DNA from: Phormidesmis sp. | Lineage (GTDB): Bacteria > Cyanobacteriota > Cyanobacteriia > Leptolyngbyales > Leptolyngbyaceae | Direction: 5' to 3' | DNA: 64,000 nucleotides | Assembly: GCA_965248535.1 (NCBI GenBank) | Contig: CBDFJR010000002.1 | Coordinates: 64,001 to 128,000, forward strand | In this document: positions 17,292-28,489 of the stretch, piece by piece | How positions within the stretch are numbered: the first letter of the stretch is position 1 | How the letters are laid out: each line of letters starts with the position of its first letter | Notes under the pieces: model-generated | Told to the model about the DNA's origin: nothing | The model's input: only the letters and a program-made list of their open reading frames with translations | Database searches by the model: none | Program-made: the position numbers and the translations under genes

Positions 17292-18470
17292 CTATTGACT
17301 ATCAGAGGGAGCGATCAGTTGACCGTTTCTGGTAAGTTTGAGGGTTCGCCCGCGCCATTTAACCCGATCGCCGACAAACCCATAGCACCACAGGGCAAAT
17401 CGCAGCAGATCGCTCAAAGGCACCAGCCAAAAAAGTTTTTTGACCACCGGATCGTTGAGCACCTGAACGCCAATCATCCAAGCGAGGGCGAGTCTAGATA
17501 GCCACGTCACTCCTAACACAAACCAACCCAAGGGCGAGGCTTGCAGAGTCAACAAGCTCACCAAACTGGCCACCGTGCCAAAGGTAAAAATCTGTCCCGC
17601 GTAGCCGAGAGGTTGGCAGACACGAATGCCGCGATTCCATCGGGTCTGATGCTGAATTAGCTCAATAAATCCCTGGGTGTCTAACTGGTGATCGACAACG
17701 TAGCGAGATAGCACCACCTGATAGCCTGCATTGGCGGGCATTCGCCCCAAGTGAAAGTCATCGTGGAGATAATTGGCAACGGATTGAAATCCCCCGATCG
17801 CCTCTAAAACAGAGTCACGAATTACAATAGTTGCGCCAATGCCAAAGTTCATGCCCGATAATTTTCGAGACACTAACGTTGTTGGGGCTAACTCAGTTGA
17901 GATGCCCAAAGCCTCAAAATCGGCCATGCCTCCCTGAGCAACTGACCGATACATACAGGTCACAACTCCCACTGCTGGGTTAGATAGGGGCTGCACAACG
18001 GTGATTAGATAATCTGAGCCGACGTGAATATCGCTGTCTGAAATCAGCAAAATTGGGTGAATGGCTTTGGATCGAGCATTAGCTAAGTTGCTAATTTTTA
18101 GATTAGTTCCAATGGTGCGATCGCTGATCACCAAACAAGTTTTGATCGCTGGAAAGTCCTGGATAATTTGTTTCACTACAGGCACAACGGGATCAAGAGG
18201 ATCTTGCACCCCAAAAATAATCTGATAATCAGGATAGTCTTGACGACAAAATGACGCGAGATTTTCGTAGGTGTCGCTGTCTAGCCCGCACAAGGGTTTG
18301 AGAATGCTAACGGGCGGATGAAACTCAGGCGTAACTTGCTTTGGCTGTGACAAGAAATCGATCGCCGAATAAATCCCCAGACCAGCATAAAAAATTGCTA
18401 CTAAACACCACACCACAGGCACCAAGCGCACCCAATCGCCAAACTCTGCCAAACGAAGAACTAATAGCAT
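17292..18470 (-). CDS. hpnI: Hopanoid glycosyltransferase HpnI, copy 2
   Basis: SILKPLCG, GTNLKISNL, SDSD, QTRW; in operon with hpnJK. Confidence 0.85.
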   Translation of the reverse strand: MLLVLRLAEFGDWVRLVPVVWCLVAIFYAGLGIYSAIDFLSQPKQVTPEFHPPVSILKPLCGLDSDTYENLASFCRQDYPDYQIIFGVQDPLDPVVPVVKQIIQDFPAIKTCLVISDRTIGTNLKISNLANARSKAIHPILLISDSDIHVGSDYLITVVQPLSNPAVGVVTCMYRSVAQGGMADFEALGISTELAPTTLVSRKLSGMNFGIGATIVIRDSVLEAIGGFQSVANYLHDDFHLGRMPANAGYQVVLSRYVVDHQLDTQGFIELIQHQTRWNRGIRVCQPLGYAGQIFTFGTVASLVSLLTLQASPLGWFVLGVTWLSRLALAWMIGVQVLNDPVVKKLFWLVPLSDLLRFALWCYGFVGDRVKWRGRTLKLTRNGQLIAPSDSQ

Positions 18471-19375
18471 TAACGGGCCACCGCTCCTAATTGAGAATAA
18501 TTGGTTAACTCAAACCCCTGGCGGTGAATCATAGCCCGCACCCGATCGCTGATCAGGGCATCGCGTTCTGCCTCGCCTAACCCATAAGCTTCGTTGGCAG
18601 GTTCTCCTGCAATAGCAACCGCCGGATGAGCATAGATCTCAACCAGGTTTGAGTGAATGTGAGGAATCAGCTTGAGCAAATAGGCTTCGGTCATGCGACC
18701 ACTGTTGAGCAACCCATAGACCCGATCGACAAACTGAATGTTGCGCGATCGCAGCACCCCCTCTCCATAGCGACGTAGCCCCGCATAGACGATCGAGATC
18801 AGCAATTTTGTCAGCAGATCAGAGCGATCGGCGCTGAGAGAGGCAGAGAGATTTTCGAGCGGAAGCCGCACAAATCGAATCTTGAACTCGTCTGCTAAGT
18901 TAGCCAGATGGCGTAACACTACAGGCTGTAGATGCACATGGACGTGCCCATCGACGTGAGAAAGTGGTAGCCCAGTTTGACAAAATTTTTCTAACTGTGC
19001 CCGCATCTCAAGGGGAATCTCGCGCTGGGCGGCAGCACTAAACTGATAGTAAAGGCCCGCTTTTTCAGGCTGATCTGAGAAATTGCCCTGAGCATCGACC
19101 AAGTGAGGAATTTGGCTCGACGGCAGCAGCGATCGTCCACAGGCTAAAACGAGGTGTAGCCCAACTGCGAGTTGAGGATGGGCTTTTGCCAACATAACCG
19201 CTTCCTCAAATGCCTCGCCCGTCACCATGAGGCTAGTGCTAGTGAGAATGCCGCGATCGTGCGCTTCGATGATGGCTTGATTGACTCCAGACGAAAACCC
19301 AAAATCGTCACCGTTGATGATTAGACGGCGTTTGGGCTGTGGTTCCGATTCATTGAGGTGATTCTCAGAGTCCAA
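18470..19375 (-). CDS. hpnK: Hopanoid deacetylase HpnK (YdjC family)
   Basis: NGDDFG, LTSTSLMV, GLHL, HVDGHVHVH, EIYAHP. Confidence 0.88.
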   Translation of the reverse strand: MDSENHLNESEPQPKRRLIINGDDFGFSSGVNQAIIEAHDRGILTSTSLMVTGEAFEEAVMLAKAHPQLAVGLHLVLACGRSLLPSSQIPHLVDAQGNFSDQPEKAGLYYQFSAAAQREIPLEMRAQLEKFCQTGLPLSHVDGHVHVHLQPVVLRHLANLADEFKIRFVRLPLENLSASLSADRSDLLTKLLISIVYAGLRRYGEGVLRSRNIQFVDRVYGLLNSGRMTEAYLLKLIPHIHSNLVEIYAHPAVAIAGEPANEAYGLGEAERDALISDRVRAMIHRQGFELTNYSQLGAVAR

Positions 19376-19393
19376 TGTTTGTGTGTCCTTTGT

Positions 19394-20593
19394 TCAACCG
19401 ATCGCTGACTTAACTTTTCTAGGCAGATTTGACGGATAGGCAACCAATTCACCCGTTCTCATCAGTTTAAACTGGTGATCGCGCCACCGAATGGTGTTGC
19501 CAATAAAACCATAGCACCATAGCCCAAAACTGATTAGATCACGCAAGTGCACAAGCCAAAGCAATTTTTTCGCAACAGGATCGTGAATGCTTTTAACGCC
19601 GATAAACCACGCCATTGCCAATCGCAGCGTCCATGTGATCATTAAAACAATCCAACCCCAAGGTGACCCGGCTGTGATTAGTAAAAATAAAAGGCTGGCA
19701 ACCGTGCCGTAGGTAAAAATTAATCCTAAATATCCCCACGGGCGCGAAACTCGAATGCCCACCATCCAGCGCAGTTGACGCTGTAAGGCTCCTGCTATTG
19801 TGGGGGTCGCCATCACATGATCAACAATGTGGTGAGACAACACCCCTTGATAGCCCGCTTGAGTGGGTAAATAACCGAGTTGAAAGTCATCGGCTAAATA
19901 ATCCGCGATCGCGGCAAATCCGCCGATTTCTTCTAGCACCGATCGCCGCATGACGATCGTTTGACCCATCGCAAATTTCACCCCTTCTAGCTGATTGCTC
20001 ACCAAAACTCCGGCATGAAACTCCGTTGCCGAACTTAGCGCTTCTAACTGAGTCAGCCACCCTTCGGCGATCGAGCGATAAAGACACGTCACCGACCCCA
20101 CATTGGGATTTTTAAGCGGTTGAATCACCTGCCGTAAATAATTGGGTCCGACATAGACATCGCTATCGGATAGCAAAATAATTTCACCCTCAGCTTTGGT
20201 CATGGCATTAGCCAGGTTGCTGACTTTGCGGTTGGTGCCGATGATGCGATCGCTGACCACTAGCTGAATATCGATCGCTGGAAAGTCTTGAATCAGTTGC
20301 TTGATCACCTCAATCCCAGCATCAGCCCAATCGTGAACCGCAAAGATAATCTGATAGTTGGAATAGTCTTGGCAACAGAATGAAGCAAGATTTTTGTAGG
20401 CATGGCGATCGCGACCGCAAACGGGTTTGAGAATGCTGACCGAAGGCTGAAAGTTAGGATCAATTCGCTCAGGTTGTGAGAAAAATCTCTGCGCTGCATA
20501 AATTGCGTAGCTGTAATAACCGATCGCCGATAAACACAAACCCAATGAAAGAACTATCAGCAAATAATGCAAGAATTCAACAAGACGTGTCAT
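19394..20593 (-). CDS. hpnI: Hopanoid glycosyltransferase HpnI, copy 1
   Basis: SILKPVCG, GTNRKVSNL, SDSD, LADDFQLG, QLRW. Confidence 0.87.
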   Translation of the reverse strand: MTRLVEFLHYLLIVLSLGLCLSAIGYYSYAIYAAQRFFSQPERIDPNFQPSVSILKPVCGRDRHAYKNLASFCCQDYSNYQIIFAVHDWADAGIEVIKQLIQDFPAIDIQLVVSDRIIGTNRKVSNLANAMTKAEGEIILLSDSDVYVGPNYLRQVIQPLKNPNVGSVTCLYRSIAEGWLTQLEALSSATEFHAGVLVSNQLEGVKFAMGQTIVMRRSVLEEIGGFAAIADYLADDFQLGYLPTQAGYQGVLSHHIVDHVMATPTIAGALQRQLRWMVGIRVSRPWGYLGLIFTYGTVASLLFLLITAGSPWGWIVLMITWTLRLAMAWFIGVKSIHDPVAKKLLWLVHLRDLISFGLWCYGFIGNTIRWRDHQFKLMRTGELVAYPSNLPRKVKSAIG

Positions 20594-20742
20594 GGTGGAT
20601 GCAGCGAATTTTTAGATTAATAAGAATTCTGAAATGATCAGGTGAGAGAATTGTTGAGTGACTAGGATCGTGAATTCAGTTAAGCCGGAGCCTGTATCAA
20701 GGATTAACATCACGGAGAACACGATCGAATCCATAATCCCAA

Positions 20743-21600
20743 TCAGGTTAAATTCATTGAAATGAACGCGACCCCAATGCCGATTAGCCCAGTGCCCGCC
20801 AGTCGCCCAGCCGTCAGACGTTCTTTGAGAATAAAGTGGCTGCCTAAAATGCTAAAGGGATAACTCAAAGCCGTCATGGGCATGACCAAGCTCAGATCGG
20901 CCAGACTCAACAGCGCAATAAACCCAAAAAAATCAGCCGCCATACACAAAACTCCTAAGCCGATAAACGGATTGATCACCACCCGACGGGCTTGCCGCAA
21001 GAGCGATCGTAGGTTCGTTGCCTTCAGTTCTCCCACTTGTTTCATGCCCGTCGCCAGCAAAATATCGCCCAGCGACGCAGCCAAGGCTATGATCCCAACG
21101 CCGATCAGCAATTTGCTTTGCAAAACGACTGATCCCACACTAGATCCCGTGAGGGCAGCCGAGAAAGGCGCAAGCAACAAACTCGGCGATCGCCGATCCT
21201 GGCTGCGCTGCTTGAGGTGATCTGAGGCCGCTTCGCCCAAAACCACCAGCAACACTCCACTAGAGACGAGAGCCGTTCCCATCCAGCGAATTTGAGAGAC
21301 CTGCTCGCCGAGAATAAACCCTGCAAAAATAGCCGACAGCACATATTTAAATGCCGTCATGGGCAGCACATAGCTGAGATCAAGCCGCGAGATTGCCGCT
21401 AAATAAAGCAGCAGTGAGCCAACCAAAAAGCAGATGCCTAGCACAATCCAGGGGTTGGTCAGCACTTGAATGCCGATCGCCAGCCAAGCCGCAGAGTTGA
21501 CCCCACTCAGATCGCCCACCTGTCGCATTCCTCGGCTTAACCAAACATCGCCCAACACCTGAAAGACCACCAACAGAGAAAGAACCGCGTACTTACTCAC
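20743..21600 (-). CDS. EamA/DMT transporter made of two SMR-like halves
   Basis: Two homologous halves (GDVWLSRGMRQVG / GDILLATGMKQVG; DLSYVLPMTA / DLSLVMPMTA) joined by a polar linker. Confidence 0.8.
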   Translation of the reverse strand: MSKYAVLSLLVVFQVLGDVWLSRGMRQVGDLSGVNSAAWLAIGIQVLTNPWIVLGICFLVGSLLLYLAAISRLDLSYVLPMTAFKYVLSAIFAGFILGEQVSQIRWMGTALVSSGVLLVVLGEAASDHLKQRSQDRRSPSLLLAPFSAALTGSSVGSVVLQSKLLIGVGIIALAASLGDILLATGMKQVGELKATNLRSLLRQARRVVINPFIGLGVLCMAADFFGFIALLSLADLSLVMPMTALSYPFSILGSHFILKERLTAGRLAGTGLIGIGVAFISMNLT

Positions 21601-21665
21601 CGAAATTTTACCGTTTGATAGCCGTGATTATGGATTTGAAAGTGAGGCAATTATTCGATCAATCA

Positions 21666-23099
21666 TTATCGGGTCGCCGCTTGAGCACGGCGGTCTCTCA
21701 GGTATGAAAAGAACTCTCCGCCTTCTCGCAGTCGGCGCGTCAGCATTTGGCGATCGCTCAACATTTCGCGCACGATCGGGACAATCGCCTTGGGTCGAAA
21801 ATAGAAGCGACGATACATTTTCTCAACGGCATCTTCGATCTCGGCACTTGACAGATCGGGGTAGTGCAGCGTCGAGGTTTGAATGCCAGAGTTAGCCACA
21901 AGCGCCTGATCGCTAAACCAGCCGTTGGCGATCGCTTGCTGATAAAGCTCAGTGCCCGGATAAGGAGCCGCGATCGACACCTGAATCGTGTGGGGGCTAA
22001 TTTCGCAGGCAAACCGAATGGTTTCTTCAATCGTGGCGCGAGTCTCAATAGGCAAACCGATGATAAAGGTACCGTGAACGGTGATCCCCAAATCGCGACA
22101 GTGTTTCATAAACTGCCGGGCGGCTTCTAGCCGGATGCCTTTTTTGATGTTGTCTAAAATCTGCTGATTGCCCGACTCAAACCCCACTAGCAAAAGGCGT
22201 AAACCGTTATCTCGCAGTTGTTTGAGGGTGTCATAGTCTAAATTAGCGCGAGCGTTGCAGCTCCAAGTGAGTTTTAGTCGCTTCATGTGTTCGCTAATGG
22301 CGATCGCCCGCTGTTTGTCGATCGTAAAGGTGTCATCGTCAAACATATATTCGCGGATGCGATCGCCAAAAATGGCTTTGGCTTCCGACAGTTCGCGTCC
22401 CACAACCTCTGGACTTTTGGTGCGATATTGGTGTCCCCCGATGGTTTGGGGCCAGAGACAAAAGCTGCACTTAGCTGGGCAACCGCGCCCCGTATAAAAC
22501 GAGATGTAGGGATGCAGCAAATAACCGATGAAATATTTGGTGATGTCTAAATCACGCGCATAGGTTGGCAAGACGCTCGGCATCGCGTCCCAATCGTGGA
22601 TTAAGTCACGATCGGGCGTGTGGTGAAGATTGCCGTCGTGATCTCGATAGCTCAGACCCTTAATTTGATCCCAGGGTTCGCCTGCTGCCAGATCTTTGCA
22701 GGTGTAGTCAAATTCGTGGCGACAGACAAAATCGATGACCGGGTTATCGCGCAGCGTTTGCTCAGGCAGCACCGCGACGTGCGCCCCAATTAAGCCAATC
22801 TGAAGGGATGGATTTTGGGCTTTGAGGGTTTCAGCACATTTGACATCGTTAGCCAAAGAGGGCGTGCTGGTGTGCATGATCACCAACTCATAGTCTTTGG
22901 CAATTTTCAGCACATCGTCCACTGTCTGACCGTGGGGTGGGGCATCGACTAGCCTGCTGCCAGGCACAAGAGCGGCAGGTTGAGCCAGCCAGGTTGGATA
23001 CCAAAAGGAGGTAATCTCACGCTTTGCCTGATATCTCGACCCAGCGCCCCCGTCAAACCCGTCAAAGGAGGGAGGGCTTAAAAACAACGTCTTTTTCAT
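21666..23099 (-). CDS. hpnJ: Hopanoid radical SAM protein HpnJ
   Basis: PPSFDGFDGGAGSRYQAKRE, CPAKCSFC, FDDDTF. Confidence 0.93.
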   Translation of the reverse strand: MKKTLFLSPPSFDGFDGGAGSRYQAKREITSFWYPTWLAQPAALVPGSRLVDAPPHGQTVDDVLKIAKDYELVIMHTSTPSLANDVKCAETLKAQNPSLQIGLIGAHVAVLPEQTLRDNPVIDFVCRHEFDYTCKDLAAGEPWDQIKGLSYRDHDGNLHHTPDRDLIHDWDAMPSVLPTYARDLDITKYFIGYLLHPYISFYTGRGCPAKCSFCLWPQTIGGHQYRTKSPEVVGRELSEAKAIFGDRIREYMFDDDTFTIDKQRAIAISEHMKRLKLTWSCNARANLDYDTLKQLRDNGLRLLLVGFESGNQQILDNIKKGIRLEAARQFMKHCRDLGITVHGTFIIGLPIETRATIEETIRFACEISPHTIQVSIAAPYPGTELYQQAIANGWFSDQALVANSGIQTSTLHYPDLSSAEIEDAVEKMYRRFYFRPKAIVPIVREMLSDRQMLTRRLREGGEFFSYLRDRRAQAATR

Positions 23100-23305: not shown

Positions 23306-24154
23306 CTAGAGATTAGCGCCTACAAACGTGTTGCACTGGGAGGGATCACCACTCTGAATGCCTTTTTTGAACCACTGCACTCGCTGGGCTGCACTGCCGT
23401 GGGTGAAAGACTCTGGCACCACATATCCTCTAGCTCTTTCCTGCAAGCGATCGTCTCCGATCGCGCTAGCGGCTGCGATCGCTTCCTCAATGTCGCCCTG
23501 TTGCAGCACTTGCCGCGATCGCTGGGCGCGATTTCCCCAAACCCCGGCAAAGCAATCGGCCTGAAGCTCTAGCTTGACCGAAAGCTGATTGGCTTCTAGC
23601 TGACTCGATCGGGCTTGCAGCGATCGCACTTTGTTTGAAATGCCCAGCAGATTTTGGACATGATGCCCGACTTCATGAGCGATCACATAAGCCTGGGCAA
23701 AATCTCCTGGTGCCTGATATTTGGTCTTCAGTTCACGGTAAAACCCTAAGTCGATGTAGACCTTTTGATCACGGGGACAGTAGAAAGGGCCCACGGCCGA
23801 ACGGGTAAACCCACAAGCTGACTCAACCGCGTCGGAATAAAGCACAAGGGTTGGCTCGACATATTTGCCGCCACTTTGCCTGAAAATAGTGCTCCAAGTG
23901 TCTTCTGTGTCAGCTAAAACCACCGATACAAAGTCAGACATTTTATCAGTGGCAGCGCCTGTTGTTTGAGGCGATCGAGGTTGGGAAGACGAAGGAGCGC
24001 TTTGGTTGAGAATCGCACTGGGATCGCCGCCCAAAAAAGTGACCACAAGCGCCAAGAAGATAGTGCCAATGCCACCGCCGATCACAGGGGCAGACACTCC
24101 CCTACCCCGTCGATCTTCAACGTTTGTGCTTCTACGTCCCTTTTCCCAATCCAT
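23306..24154 (-). CDS. Neutral zinc metallopeptidase (YpfJ family)
   Basis: STNVEDRRG, GPFYCP, AHEVGHHVQ, ELQADCFAG, SFTHGS. Confidence 0.9.
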   Translation of the reverse strand: MDWEKGRRSTNVEDRRGRGVSAPVIGGGIGTIFLALVVTFLGGDPSAILNQSAPSSSQPRSPQTTGAATDKMSDFVSVVLADTEDTWSTIFRQSGGKYVEPTLVLYSDAVESACGFTRSAVGPFYCPRDQKVYIDLGFYRELKTKYQAPGDFAQAYVIAHEVGHHVQNLLGISNKVRSLQARSSQLEANQLSVKLELQADCFAGVWGNRAQRSRQVLQQGDIEEAIAAASAIGDDRLQERARGYVVPESFTHGSAAQRVQWFKKGIQSGDPSQCNTFVGANL

Positions 24155-24512
24155 TGTTTTAACGCTCCGCTCTTTAGGGGTTTATAAGCTCTGACCAAAC
24201 CTGAGTAGTCTTATTTCGGAAAGGTTGAAGAAAAACAGGTATTGTCTGGAATATTCCACTGCCTGATTGCCTAAGTTGAGCTATCTTTCCCTAAATGACA
24301 CTCCCCCTGCAACTCTCATAGGGCTGATCTATTGGTAAAAGAAAAGGTAGAATCCCTGTCTTTCCGATGACCGCTTTGAACATCATTCAAACATGCAATG
24401 GATTTACAAGGGTTTCAATATTGTTTTTTCAATGTATTAGCCTTGCTCCACCTCTCACTGATCCCCCATTCCATCTGCACTAACGCATTGTTAGCTTGCG
24501 CCGTTCGCTGCG

Positions 24513-24926
24513 CTATGCTGGTTCAGCAACACCATCCCGCTCCCAGACAACTGATCGTTCGATCGTTCCCAACTCTGCAAATGACTTGGCTGCTTTGAGA
24601 GTAGTTGTTAAGTCAACACACCATTTTGCAGGGTAGATACCTTCTTGCCCGCCAACCACTAGAGTTTCAGCTTTCTCTGACTTTGCTGGATTCGTTAGAT
24701 AATTAAAGGTTTCGTTGTCAGAAGTGACGTATACAAGATATTTGCCAGTACCACCACCAATAGCCATGTGCATTTCACCCTCAGCTTCTAGGGTTACTAA
24801 TGTTTTACGATAACCATCTAGTTCTTTAATCGCTGCTTCTATTTCTTCCCAGCCTTTTGCCTCTGCTATCAATCCATTATTTTGATTGCTTTGCCAGTCT
24901 TCAACTGAAAATTTAGAAATAAACAT
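24513..24926 (-). CDS. Imm1 family immunity protein
   Basis: MAIGGG, LVVGGQEGIYPAKWCV..., AKSFAELG...VVWE pattern typical of Imm1; begins 7 nt after the deaminase stop, with GAGG RBS. Confidence 0.75.
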   Translation of the reverse strand: MFISKFSVEDWQSNQNNGLIAEAKGWEEIEAAIKELDGYRKTLVTLEAEGEMHMAIGGGTGKYLVYVTSDNETFNYLTNPAKSEKAETLVVGGQEGIYPAKWCVDLTTTLKAAKSFAELGTIERSVVWERDGVAEPA

Positions 24927-24933
24927 ACCAACC

Positions 24934-25314
24934 TCACTTCAGCATAATAATCTGACGATCGCTAGGGCTAATGATCTCTATTTCGTCTAGGTTAAGTTGT
25001 CTAGCCATTCCCTTTACACCTCCATTTTGACCGCAAGCTCGGCAAAGATCTCGATCAACAGTTAGACGCGCTCGACCTCCCCTAAATCCTAAATCAAAAG
25101 CTTGCTGGAAAGCGTCTGCCTCGGCGTGAGTCCGACTAATTGGATTGACTCTAAGTGTCATCTTCCTAGGGCTAGGGTTGCTACTGGAATTGACCCCGAA
25201 AAGTATCACGCCATCTATTTCTAGTTTGGCAACTGTTGCACGGTCGCTTTCGCTACCGGCTGGAGGAAGCCCAAGTTGTTGTCTATACTCTGCTAGCTCC
25301 TGAAAATCGCTCAA
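24934..25314 (-). CDS. Stand-alone zinc-dependent nucleic-acid deaminase, toxin-like
   Basis: HAE (THAEADAFQQA) and CxxC (DLCRAC) of the cytidine deaminase fold; upstream of Imm1. Confidence 0.8.
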   Translation of the reverse strand: MSDFQELAEYRQQLGLPPAGSESDRATVAKLEIDGVILFGVNSSSNPSPRKMTLRVNPISRTHAEADAFQQAFDLGFRGGRARLTVDRDLCRACGQNGGVKGMARQLNLDEIEIISPSDRQIIMLK

Positions 25315-25533
25315 CCTTTTGTTTGCTCCCTAGTACCTTACCACCGCTCAGATTATCAGGTTAGGTGGCACATAACTCGATCGCATAGCAAGCTCTTGAA
25401 GATAGCAGCCCCATACCTCAAAGGCGAAAGGACAATCAAGCCTACTCGTTATTGTTCAAACCAGTTGGGCAACTAGCCCGGTTGAAAGGACTATTAGAGT
25501 TTGCTCTAGGATCAAGCCACTTCAAAGAATGGC

Positions 25534-28489
25534 TCACAGAAAATCTGCCAATAACGTTAGCGATCGCTGCACCTGTTTTTCCCACGTCCAATCCTGCATA
25601 AACTGGGCGGCGGCATGGCCCCGACGCTGGGCTTCAGCACGATTGCCATAGACCTGCTCTAACTGCTCAACCACTTCTTCAACCTGTGACTCGCCCCAGC
25701 CTTCGGTGCCCCGATAGTGCTCGTTGCCCAAAACGGGATGCTGAGTGCAGAGCGGATAGCAGTGCTCAGGGTGAATCAGATCCAAATGTCCCGTGTTCAT
25801 CGACAAAATCGTGGGAATGCCACAGGCAAAGCTTTCCATTGCGACTAGATTCGTGCCGCCTTCACCGCGATTGGTAAACACAGCAACATCGGCTTCGCGC
25901 AAAATCTGAGGGGCGATCGCATTGGGGATCATGCCCACATCTAGCACTGCATCCGCCGGAATGCCATTTTCGACCAGCCAGCGCGTCACCTGCAATTTTC
26001 CGTGAGCATCCACGCTCGGAATTCCTGTAACGTGATGGGCGCGATCGAGTCCGGTCAGGGTGTTGACCCAGTGGTTATGCCAGGCGGTTAAAAGCAGCGC
26101 TTCGGGATGGCGCGATCGAAAAATGCGAAAAGCAGCCACCACAATATCTTGACCTTTGCGATATTCTAATTTGCCGCCCGAAAAAATCACAAAGCGATCG
26201 TGCAACAAGCCCGATCGGGGTGCCGGGTGAAATAGAGTGGGATCGATGCCCTGCTGAACGGTTTCAACCTGGGTGAGTCCATAGCTTCGCAAGATTTCAG
26301 CATTCCAACTAGACCCGGCGAGAATGCGATCGTAGCGCTGCGCCTGCTCAATTGCTTGGGGCAAAAAATGGGTGTCTTCCGAAAAAATAACGCCGATGTT
26401 GTGTGCGCCCTGAATGCGCTGATTTTCATCGCTGGTCACAAAGTGATTGCCGAGCGGCTTGAGCACGAGCAAGTTTGTTGTTAAAGTCTTATCGGGATGC
26501 TGAATGAGCAGCGATTTGAATCTGCTGAGAATAGTGCCGCACTGAGTTAAGGCGCGATCGCAGCACAGCATTCAACTCTGACCATGCAGAAATCCTGAGC
26601 AACGGTACAGGTTCTAGATGAGAAGTCTTCAATAACTGCAATGCTAGATTTAATCCATAAACACCCCAGCCGAGATTTCCACCGATCGGGAATCCAATTC
26701 CAATTTGCTTAGGGCTAGATGATGAAGTAACTAAACTTAGGTTAGATTTGAATTCAATAAGTTGACTGTAATTATCAATTCTAGAGTTATCGATTGAAGA
26801 TTTTTTATTAGCTAGTAATATTAATTCGTTCTGAATCGATTCTGTAACGCTTGACCAATCCCTAAGAGAATGCTGACGAAATAATCGAGCCGTTGGATAC
26901 CAGGGACTATCTGCCCGATCGAGACCCCACCGCCAATCAGGAACCGCGCTCAACAGAACCCACACGGGTTTACCCATTGCGCCCGCTAAGTGAGCCACCG
27001 ACGTATCCACACTGATGACTAAATCCAGCCGAGCGATCGCCGCGGCCGTGTCTGCAAAATCTTCAAGCTGCTCCTCTAAATCTACGATCGCAATGAGCGG
27101 ATTTGCCGCCTGAAACTGCTGTAACTCGTCCGATCTGCCCTTCTGCAAACTATAAAACTCAACCCCGGTTAAGCTCAAGAGCGGCAGCAACTCGGTGAGA
27201 GTGATCGAGCGATCGCGATCGTTGCCATTTTTAGAATTTCCGCCCCAGACAATGCCAACTTTTAAGCCAGACGAAGAACTAGAAACTTCAGGAGCCAAAA
27301 GATAGGGAATCGTTGCCGGAATCGTGTCTAGGGTTGTCTTCAACCGATAGGGCAAACTCAGCAACATCGCATAACAATCAAACGGCGGCATTGTTCCCCC
27401 TTCAAGCACCAGTTGATCAATGCCCGGAGCCGTTTTGAGTAAGCGCAATAACGGAGCCGAACAGCCCACAAGCACCCGTCCGCCTAGAGGCAGCAACCAG
27501 CGGCGCATAGCGAACAAATTGAATCAGATCCCCAAAGCCTTGCTCATGACAGAGCAAAATCGTTTTGCCCGTTAGATCAGAGCCATCCCACTCTGGCTGA
27601 GGAAACTTAGGAGGAGTGAGAGATTGTCCTGCCCAGCGTTGTTCATAATATCGAAATCCTGCTTTAACTCGCCTCTCAACAACAACCAAAACCCATAGTT
27701 AAGTTGAGCATTAGCATAGTCAGGATCAAGTCTTAAAGCTTCTTGATAGCAATTGTTTGCCTCGTCAAACTGCCCACAATAGTAGGCAGACACTCCTAAG
27801 TTATTGTGGGCGGCCGCAAAGGTTGGGTCAAGCGCGATCGCTTGTCTGAGATGCCCGATCGCTGCCTCAACGCGGCCTAGTTTTCGCAAAATCTCGCCCA
27901 AACTGTTGTGAGCGATCGCATGATCGGGTTTGAGTGCCAACGCTTGCTGATAGGCATCTGCCGCCGCCTCAAACTGCTCTAACTCTTGCAGACACGCCCC
28001 TAAATTGTGCAGCGATTGCCGATGGTCAGGCTTCAAGATCAATGCTTGACGATAGGCGGCGATCGCCGCTTCGTGTTGACGCTGCGCGAGATAAGCGTTC
28101 CCCAAGTTGTAGTGGCTTTGATAAAAACTCGCATCAAGAGCAATAGCCGCCTGATAATGCCCGATCGCGGCATCCATTTGCTCAACTTTTGAGAATGCCG
28201 TGCCCAAATTATAGTGAGCAGACGCATGGCCGGGAGCAAGGCTGAGAAAAGCCTGATAGTGCACGATCGCCCGCTCAAATTGTTGTGTTTGACAATAGAC
28301 AATGCCTAACATCTCTAGAGTCTCGATCGACTCAGGATGTTGTTGAATAATTTGCAAACAGAGTGATTCTGTGGTGTCCCAATCCTCAGCTTCAAAGGCA
28401 TCTTTTGCTGAGGTCAACCGATTAAAAGCCTCATTCATTGTCATTGCTTGATGCAAAGATCGTTCACCATTTTGCGCTAGTGAATCCAA
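25534..28489 (-). pseudogene. TPR + GT9-like + GT4 multidomain glycosyltransferase interrupted by three single-base indels
   Basis: TPR repeats; HEQGFGDLIQF; DLVISVDTSVAHLAGA; GGKLEYRKGQD, EGGTNLVAME; frame changes near 27665, 27488 and 26516; corrected length 2955 nt. Confidence 0.8.

Follow-up and report, generated by a model that had tools for sequence, protein, structure and literature searches.

A stand-alone deaminase gene of polymorphic-toxin descent and its Imm1 partner in the chromosome of a Phormidesmis cyanobacterium

The deaminase-Imm1 locus

The window analysed here, a stretch of 64,000 nucleotides from the cyanobacterium Phormidesmis sp. (Leptolyngbyaceae; assembly GCA_965248535.1, contig CBDFJR010000002.1, positions 64,001 to 128,000 of the forward strand), contains two small adjacent genes, the first encoding a deaminase of the MafB19-deam family and the second an immunity protein of the Imm1 family. 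An earlier note, made from the sequence of the window alone, had described a protein of 126 amino acids (aa) with an HAE and a CxxC motif, followed 7 nucleotides (nt) later by an Imm1-like gene; both were found as described, on the minus strand, which the note had not stated. The features of the pair, in positions of the window, are the following:

24934..25314, minus strand: open reading frame (ORF) of the deaminase, MafB19-deam family, 126 aa, TTG start (from the ORF, motifs, Pfam, invariant residues and an AlphaFold2 (AF2) model)
25312..25332, minus strand: start region of the deaminase, with TTG (25314-25312), GGAG (25329-25326) and an in-frame TAG (25332-25330) (from the sequence)
24513..24926, minus strand: Imm1 immunity gene, 137 aa, ATG start (from Pfam, homologues and the complex model)
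24927..24936, minus strand: junction, with the deaminase stop TGA (24936-24934), an overlapping GAGG, a 7-nt spacer and then the Imm1 ATG (from the sequence)

The TTG is the sole start candidate of the deaminase ORF, and the TAG six codons 5' of it and the GGAG, both of which had been pointed out before, are indeed present; the distance of 11 nt between the end of the GGAG and the TTG is long for a Shine-Dalgarno spacing. The protein carries the zinc and catalytic motifs H63-A-E65 and C91-R-A-C94, matches Pfam PF14437 (MafB19-deam) over residues 8-107 with 37.1 bits (cut-off 27, E 3.6e-9), and keeps all the residues that are invariant among 64 homologues (G40, N57, A64, E65, D87, C91 and C94). 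Of the features tabulated by Iyer et al. 2011 (PMC3239186), HxE of helix 2 corresponds to H63-A-E65 and +xxCxxC of helix 3 to R88-D-L-C91-R-A-C94, and V85, which closes strand 81-86 in the AF2 model, matches the V of the clade at the end of strand 3; for the G with which strand 4 of the clade begins, no confident placement was obtained. A signal peptide is not evident by eye, the N-terminus being polar and the Pfam match beginning at residue 8. The Imm1 protein, whose ATG at 24926 follows the spacer GGTTGGT, matches PF14430 with 51.7 bits (cut-off 22.4, E 1.9e-13). It has 215 homologues, the best 120 of which are 132-143 aa long (137 aa in 105 of the 120) and 62-100% identical, and its invariant positions in 43 sequences include a GGQxGxY loop (92-98) and W128, the latter in agreement with the conserved near-C-terminal tryptophan that is expected of Imm1 according to the relevant passage of Iyer et al. 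2011 (PMC3239186). Neither protein matches any NCBIfam family. In the protein collection searched, the Imm1 of the window is present at 100% identity (P0312) and the best match of the deaminase is only 90% identical, so that the deaminase ORF was apparently skipped by the gene calling at the source.

Deaminase fold and predicted inhibition by Imm1

The alignment-based AF2 model of the deaminase (pLDDT 90.1, pTM 0.83) has a cytidine-deaminase fold with a terminal beta-hairpin (strands 111-115 and 120-124), which places it in the C-terminal-hairpin division. Foldseek with this model gave E values down to 2e-4 against cytidine deaminases, and VIA Z scores of 7-8.4 were obtained alike for blasticidin-S deaminases, cytidine deaminases, DddB/BaDTF3, DYW, DddA and SsdA. 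As far as the model goes, the fold can be regarded as settled, and the substrate, DNA or RNA, is not inferable from the structure. An assignment of the substrate from the structural matches was rejected, as toxin, DYW, cytidine and blasticidin deaminases differ by no more than 1 unit in their Z scores.

That the protein might be a housekeeping nucleoside or nucleotide deaminase mistaken for a toxin has to be considered, as cytidine and blasticidin-S deaminases are among the top structural matches (Z 8.1-8.4) and as the PF14437 model also matches RibD. The RibD of the riboflavin pathway at L002:1514-2623 even scores 46.2 bits on this model, above the 37.1 bits of the toxin, and the PF14437 model alone therefore cannot separate toxins from housekeeping deaminases. 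The relatives by sequence are, however, toxin tips, the gene is imported, patchily distributed and often decayed, and Imm1, which is the next gene in 30 of 31 loci, would according to prediction plug the active site, so that a housekeeping function is extremely improbable.

The prediction of this plug comes from a model of the deaminase-Imm1 complex that scored 0.84, the best control reaching 0.28. Of 157 solved complexes, 116 scored at least as high, as did 2 of 215 mismatched pairs; this benchmark is only rough since own alignments were used. The runs of the complex model share at least 96% of the contacts with a partner pLDDT of at least 87, and the modelled interface includes deaminase residues 57-59, 62-64 and 91-94, which form the zinc and catalytic site, together with the Imm1 loop 90-98 that contains the invariant GGQxGxY. 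The model thus supports a binding of Imm1 by occlusion of the active site. In sequence searches of the PDB with single proteins and profiles, the deaminase matched only the zinc motif of dCMP deaminase (E 0.005), neither the Imm1 protein nor the Imm1 profile matched any solved chain, and no similar deaminase-inhibitor complex was detectable. The proposal that DddA/DddI is the model for Imm1 inhibitors of deaminases is accordingly not backed by sequence; of the comparison with DddA, SsdA and MafB19-type deaminases that had been suggested, the MafB19-deam profile and the shared fold held, and a sequence similarity to DddA or SsdA did not.

A toxin tip with stand-alone and fused relatives

An exhaustive search of representative proteins with the deaminase gave 391 proteins at E<=1e-3. 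In the long ones, with lengths of up to 3,330 aa, the matched domain is at the extreme C-terminus, and among 24 representatives Pfam identified RHS repeats (including the SpvB/TcdB and teneurin types) in 12, haemagglutinin repeats (Fil_haemagg_2) in 2, PT-HINT in 2 and the MafB N-terminal domain in 1. Going by these architectures, the deaminase family as a whole is a classic polymorphic-toxin tip, in agreement with Iyer et al. 2011 and Zhang et al. 2012. As close cyanobacterial relatives, too, are in part fused to carrier domains, the absence of a delivery domain fits the window copy and its clade and not the family. That the domain of the window is of polymorphic-toxin descent and complete in its catalytic residues is well supported.

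The deaminase has 294 matches in the size range of 69-221 aa, the best 120 of which are 75-90% identical, and 94 of these 120 are no longer than 130 aa. A leading L is printed in 55 of the 94, which indicates a non-ATG start. Among proteins of 222-2000 aa there are 50 matches, 18 of them at 75% identity or more (235-249 aa) and 5 at 62-66% (231-461 aa); the rest do not exceed 54%, with the exception of a chimera (P0311). Close cyanobacterial relatives are thus mostly stand-alone, going by these 94 of the best 120 short matches, and others have short N-terminal domains in front of the deaminase. A genome scan resulted in 32 loci, one of which (L032, a weak match of 37 residues in an acidobacterial bin) was dropped, and the remaining 31 fall into these classes:

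Intact and stand-alone, start at or near the domain boundary, 10 loci: L001, L002, L012, L013 and L016 (TTG), L019 (ATG), and L021-L024
Intact and fused, 6 loci: type-A, 235 aa (L003, L006, L008, L011); type-B, helical, 237 aa (L010); 374 aa (L017)
Intact domain without ATG, GTG or TTG after the upstream stop, 3 loci: L004, L005, L007
Broken by premature stop, frameshifts, 5' truncations or an insertion, 8 loci: L009, L025-L031
Not assessable because of contig ends or remnants, 4 loci: L014, L015, L018, L020

L021-L024 are loci of Pseudanabaena in which the ATG lies 18 codons upstream of the boundary, the fusion of 374 aa consists of type-B, an AHH nuclease and the deaminase, and in L025 an insertion of about 180 base pairs (bp) with inverted ends (L025:1295-1475) splits the deaminase gene. 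The one locus without an Imm1 gene downstream is L020, which ends inside the deaminase gene. In 27 of the other 30, Imm1 is an intact ATG ORF of 137 aa, in 2 it runs to the end of the locus, and it is broken only in L029, where the deaminase is also truncated. An intact deaminase next to a broken Imm1 was found in none of 22 assessable loci, and Imm1 is still complete in 5 of the 8 loci with a broken deaminase. One further locus is peculiar in its origin: the pair of L015, on a contig of 1,948 bases from an Acetobacteraceae bin, is near-identical to Nostoc copies and stands beside L006 in the tree, which is probably a binning error rather than a transfer.

Start codons, selection and the question of a silent orphan

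The start region was compared in an alignment of nine copies, comprising the window, the 5 intact TTG loci, two broken copies and the fused L010. The TTG is kept in all nine, a purine-rich motif lies 8-14 nt upstream of it, and the homology is gone about 20 nt upstream. In L010 the same TTG encodes the Leu of a GGSGL linker, and therefore the boundary of the stand-alone gene corresponds to the linker of a fused ancestor. Start codons at or near the domain boundary are present in separate lineages, as TTG in the window and 5 loci and as ATG in L019 and, 18 codons upstream, in the four Pseudanabaena loci.

With the NG86 method, the median ratio of nonsynonymous to synonymous substitution (dN/dS, omega) among stand-alone copies is 0.092 for the deaminase (19 of 45 pairs being usable, the rest having a saturated dS) and 0.157 for Imm1, and among fused copies 0.088 and 0.137, respectively; a saturated dS affects many of the pairwise comparisons. 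For the window and L002, dS is 0.52 and omega 0.18, and for the window and L001, dS is 1.12 and omega 0.07. In a maximum-likelihood tree of the concatenated pair, built from 23 rows without the broken copies and L020, the window falls together with L001, L002 and L012 (support 99/96); none of the four is fused, and going by their record titles they belong to different cyanobacterial families. A clade that is stand-alone throughout, with dS up to 1.1 and omega of 0.07-0.18, speaks for purifying selection on the stand-alone gene itself and for its horizontal transfer in this form. Fused type-B forms nest among the stand-alone ones, and the two states therefore interconvert. Judged from this sequence record, from the one-sided decay of the deaminase and from the modelled contact with Imm1, the stand-alone form is not simple debris. 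The earlier note had considered the case that homologues are always C-terminal tips of long toxins; stand-alone pairs were instead found to be common in cyanobacteria and under purifying selection.

It is this evidence that has to be set against the main rival explanation, which is modelled on the orphan modules of Poole et al. 2011 (PMC3150448). The pair would then be a silent orphan cassette, of which only Imm1 is made and protects against deaminase toxins that neighbouring cyanobacteria export, and the deaminase frame would be an untranslated passenger or a reserve for recombination. Orphan toxin fragments mostly lack initiation signals and orphan immunity genes are expressed, according to what Poole et al. 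report on their modules, and for the family studied here the decay of the deaminase in 8 of 31 loci, with a complete Imm1 in 5 of them, the weak start, the failure to find a promoter, the missing deaminase ORF in the protein collection and the existence of exported cyanobacterial relatives beside an FtsK-family ATPase all point in the same direction. Boundary start codons in separate lineages, including the independent ATG starts, and the low omega within the all-stand-alone clade speak against a deaminase that is never translated; moreover, the cassette adjoins no toxin locus, and its genome has no full-length toxin gene into which the tip could recombine. A silent orphan is thus rather unlikely, and it would be an ordinary finding.

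Import into the chromosome and surroundings

The pair lies between a gene for a GT4-type glycosyltransferase (25534-26571) and one for a putative neutral Zn-metallopeptidase (23306-24154), all four genes being on the minus strand. The homology of same-genus genomes to the window ends at 24200 and resumes at 25538, just past the stop codon of the GT4 gene, and the pair therefore sits in an insertion or deletion of 1,337 bp. Two features, with no strand assigned, are added by this comparison:

24201..25537: stretch of 1,337 bp with low GC content that bears the pair, absent between the same flanking genes in the same-genus genomes G002 and G007
24320..24446: element of about 130 bp 3' of Imm1 with imperfect terminal inverted repeats, repeated in same-genus genomes

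The interval between the flanking genes is 96 bp in G002 and 241 bp in G007, where a palindromic repeat fills it. In run X1, the main contig (depth 26.5, zero differences) spans the whole stretch, and a minor contig of a relative that is about 90% identical (depth 4.6) joins 24197 to 25522; the latter fits a third empty site, the content between the joined ends not being visible. The contigs of runs X3 and X4 span the stretch only in part. The GC content of the stretch is 0.446 compared to 0.504 in the genome, a value as low as which is found in 5.2% of 3,761 equal-sized tiles, and the GC at third codon positions is 0.37 and 0.30 in the pair versus 0.52-0.59 in three neighbouring genes; the pair is thus AT-richer than its flanks, as had been noted. 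The stretch is bounded neither by a target-site duplication nor by long inverted repeats, and its non-coding parts have no second copy in the genome. A match occurs in 5 of 61 same-family genomes, the own genome included; in 3 of the 5 it is split or fragmentary, and in the own genome and G012 it extends over almost the entire protein, in frames of 131 and 129 aa.

The genome of 5.03 Mb is 99.8% complete on 5 contigs. None of the 21 ORFs between 12965 and 38421, about 12 kb to either side of the pair, has an Rhs, VgrG, PAAR or haemagglutinin domain, in agreement with the earlier note, and in the whole genome there are no matches to RHS repeats or PAAR and none to the type-A and type-B carrier domains of the relatives. 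The FtsK-family ATPase of the relatives has a single weak match (22-24% identity) near 2.42 Mb of contig C2, which is taken to be the ordinary FtsK of the cell. As both genes are single-copy and the genome has no carrier domain for them, the description as a stand-alone deaminase-Imm1 toxin-immunity pair is supported. It is likewise well supported that the pair was imported into the chromosome and is unlinked to a delivery system.

A small deaminase could in principle still be exported as the cargo of an unlinked machine, such as a contractile-injection-like apparatus, or be released by lysis. The genome has two contractile-injection-like loci (G000:C5:2232362-2253607 and G000:C2:521003-545486) that together contain 5 matches to the gp19 tail tube and 3 DUF4157/eCIS_core proteins and that are positionally unrelated to the pair. 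These candidate toxin-delivery systems lie at a distance of more than 430 kb or on a different contig, and the deaminase has neither a DUF4157 domain nor a recognisable N-terminal extension, its Pfam domain beginning at residue 8. Export as a cargo effector is therefore quite improbable.

A role in anti-phage abortive infection, in which infection frees the deaminase from Imm1 and the nucleic acid of phage or host is damaged, would agree with a pair that is cytoplasmic, stand-alone and patchily distributed, and among the relatives L012 has DndB nearby and L017 an AbiEii-like AAA_21 ATPase together with a CopG antitoxin, all of them defence-type genes. However, neither protein is matched by PADLOC (E<=0.01) or PHROGs, phage genomes gave no match, a sensor component is absent, and the neighbours in the window are genes for a glycosyltransferase, a peptidase, a tetratricopeptide repeat protein and MsrB rather than a defence island, which makes this role improbable. 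The mutator role that the earlier note also proposed is likewise an inference.

Several observations on the surroundings stand apart from these questions. The element of about 130 bp has matches of 74-80% identity in G007 (5 places), G003 and G002, is present as a single copy in the own genome, and is possibly a decayed miniature inverted-repeat transposable element. Small repeat elements cluster around the cassettes also elsewhere, as in the palindrome at the empty site of G007 (L040) and in the insertion of L025. Rfam had no match at E<=1 in 23900-25800. On the minus strand of the window, 17292-23099 encodes two GT21 glycosyltransferases, a YdjC-like protein, an EamA-type membrane protein and a B12-binding radical-SAM enzyme, which looks like a cluster for lipid or glycolipid modification.

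Carrier domains and gene neighbours of the relatives

In three of the related loci (L017:962-6793, L013:236-6377 and L010:1004-3101), the toxin gene is found 3' of a gene for an FtsK/SpoIIIE-family ATPase of 677-700 aa, of which only the last approx. 240 residues are visible in L010. L017 and L013 also encode a protein of 600-737 aa without known family. L010 and L017 contain an unannotated stretch of about 72 residues that was detected by tblastn and is 36% identical to the type-B N-terminus, and at the corresponding position of L013 there is an unrelated ORF of 76 aa. The arrangement resembles a type-VII-like export set whose tips can be exchanged, namely the deaminase, the AHH nuclease and DUF6883. 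Zhang et al. 2012 (PMC3482391) mention cyanobacterial mobile WXG/YueA-like sets, and the passages of that paper on toxins in neighbourhoods of type VII secretion systems name them only for firmicutes, actinobacteria and chloroflexi. The chimera P0311 (262 aa) has a type-B N-terminus and the first approx. 40 residues of the deaminase followed by a DUF6883 domain; it is a typical tip displacement, caught midway.

The type-A N-terminal domain of 112 aa is strongly conserved in Nostocales (L003:5665-6000, L011:4106-4441, L058:3665-4372). In the 235-aa forms of Nostoc it has no Pfam match, no Atlas match and no adjoining secretion genes, and its AF2 model, made from a shallow alignment of 12 rows, is of low confidence (pLDDT 45.6). 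The type-B N-terminal domain has only generic long-helix matches in the Atlas and one sub-threshold feature match (0.75). One type-A form belongs to a mobilizable Nostoc plasmid, on which parA is found about 2.4 kb from the pair, and the startless copy of L004 lies between a ParD-like gene and ParB/ParA genes.

A proposed self-contained toxin-immunity cassette

Taken together, the locus is considered slightly likelier than not to be a horizontally acquired, self-contained toxin-immunity cassette of the addiction type that also immunises against exported relatives of its toxin. In such a cassette, a toxin tip of the MafB19-deam type would live as a small gene of its own, followed by the gene of its cognate Imm1 inhibitor. 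The deaminase would be translated at a low level from the conserved TTG, and Imm1 would be made more efficiently from its ATG with the GAGG. Imm1 would sit over the zinc site and keep the enzyme inactive in the producer, and the free enzyme would deaminate cytosine in nucleic acid, be it DNA or RNA, and would thereby be toxic. As Imm1 would restrain an enzyme that is toxic when free, the pair could persist as a selfish module of the addiction type, and it could at the same time prepare the cell for attack by related deaminase toxins of other, exporting cyanobacteria. Indirect evidence for an addiction role comes from the lack of any locus with an intact deaminase and a broken Imm1 (0 of 22) and from the plasmid and partition contexts of relatives.

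Several points weigh against such a cassette. The gene order is toxin and then immunity, and nothing points to a labile antitoxin, which addiction needs. The TTG with a GGAG 11 nt away is a weak start. A promoter scan gave no promoter-like site 5' of the deaminase, although its consensus says little for a cyanobacterium; the same scan found 3 promoter-like sites compared to 1.7 expected, a total not above that of shuffled sequences, and no terminator at the locus, which is for the same reason little informative. With the deaminase broken in 8 of 31 loci, the toxin half is often dispensable, the purifying selection could in part have been exerted while the cassettes were fused, and the Pfam MafB19-deam match is by itself not specific.

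A related but narrower possibility concerns the 126-aa form itself, which may be a free-living selfish element of cyanobacteria and not a dead orphan: a tip that gained a weak start, spreads as a two-gene unit from one distant cyanobacterial family to another and acts, restrained by Imm1, as an intracellular toxin in addiction or abortive infection. This is possible though doubtful. If it were true, it would document how an exported weapon became an intracellular toxin-antitoxin system, and it would supply a naturally minimal cytosine deaminase for nucleic acids that has a matched protein off-switch. For the self-contained cassette in general, a deaminase that is made and active would mean that a polymorphic-toxin tip has turned into an autonomous intracellular toxin-immunity module, which bears on the exchange of parts between toxin-antitoxin systems and exported toxins. 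Stand-alone copies of near-identical length number hundreds in cyanobacteria, and a very small deaminase (126 aa) with a predicted blocker of its active site is a candidate start for compact base editors with an inhibitor.

Comparison with known systems

The solved deaminase toxins used for comparison were DddA-DddI and SsdA (6u08, 8e5d, 7jtu, 9c63) and DddB/BaDTF3 (9k3e). The window deaminase shares the small cytidine-deaminase fold with 6u08 (Z 7.8, root-mean-square deviation (rmsd) 2.8 over 100 residues), with 9c63 (Z 7.6, rmsd 3.3 over 107 residues) and with DddB/BaDTF3 (Z 8.1, rmsd 2.5 over 90 residues), and like in the DddA-DddI/SsdA group a protein inhibitor is placed on the active site, here by prediction. 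No sequence similarity of the pair to DddA, SsdA, DddB or DddI is detectable, and while DddA and SsdA are type VI secretion toxins according to the titles of their PDB entries, the window deaminase is attached to no carrier.

With the MafB19 clade of Iyer et al. 2011 (PMC3239186), as described in the passages on that clade, the deaminase shares HxE, +xxCxxC, the C-terminal hairpin and the use as toxin tip on Rhs, haemagglutinin, MafB and HINT proteins, and Cyanobacteria are within the listed range. In the same passages Imm1 is associated with the SCP1.201 clade, and the immunity proteins given for MafB19 are SUFU and SUKH, whereas the partner in the window is Imm1. A screen of 175 enzymes from 2023 (10.1101/2023.06.29.547047), in the part concerned, notes that the Pfam profile and the 'MafB19' profile of Iyer et al. 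differ, and none of its enzymes had PF14437 as best match; for members of PF14437, a preprint (10.1101/2023.05.21.541555) reports, in the section concerned, cytidine deamination of single-stranded DNA in a reporter.

Stand-alone toxin-immunity cassettes are a regular part of polymorphic toxin systems in the account of Zhang et al. 2012 (PMC3482391), in whose relevant passages they consist of a toxin tip and then an immunity gene without trafficking domain, are homologous to the tips of full-length toxins elsewhere and are prone to lateral transfer, all of which applies to the window pair as well. Those cassettes recombine into a nearby full-length toxin gene, of which the genome of the window has none; the window cassette, unlike them, has its own conserved start codon and is single and isolated between housekeeping genes, and its close subfamily has more stand-alone than fused members. 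The orphan cdiA-CT/cdiI and rhs-CT/rhsI modules, as presented in the corresponding part of Poole et al. 2011 (PMC3150448), also consist of a detached toxin domain and its cognate immunity gene, and some of their toxin fragments are disrupted by mobile elements, like that of L025. They form arrays directly 3' of cdiBAI or rhs loci and keep upstream homology (VENN or DPxGL), mostly without initiation signals, whereas the window pair is flanked by the GT4 and Zn-peptidase genes, has no parent locus and loses homology about 20 nt before a conserved start codon.

Like type II toxin-antitoxin systems, the pair consists of two small adjacent genes for an enzyme toxin and a neutraliser that binds it (the binding being predicted here), and it is patchy and mobile, with relatives on plasmids near partition genes. 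It differs from them in that the toxin gene comes first, the partner has no DNA-binding antitoxin domain, and the toxin descends from exported ones. With a complete exported polymorphic toxin it shares the immunity gene directly downstream of the toxin domain, but it has neither the N-terminal trafficking domain nor the linked secretion gene that such a toxin needs.

A search of the literature, most hits of which were judged from their listing, found no paper on this cyanobacterial pair. Stand-alone cassettes and orphan modules as such are already known. What differs from the known examples is the isolation from any parent toxin gene, the conservation of a start codon at the domain boundary, the selection within an all-stand-alone and horizontally spread clade, the predominance of the stand-alone form in one phylum, and the pairing of a MafB19-type domain with Imm1.

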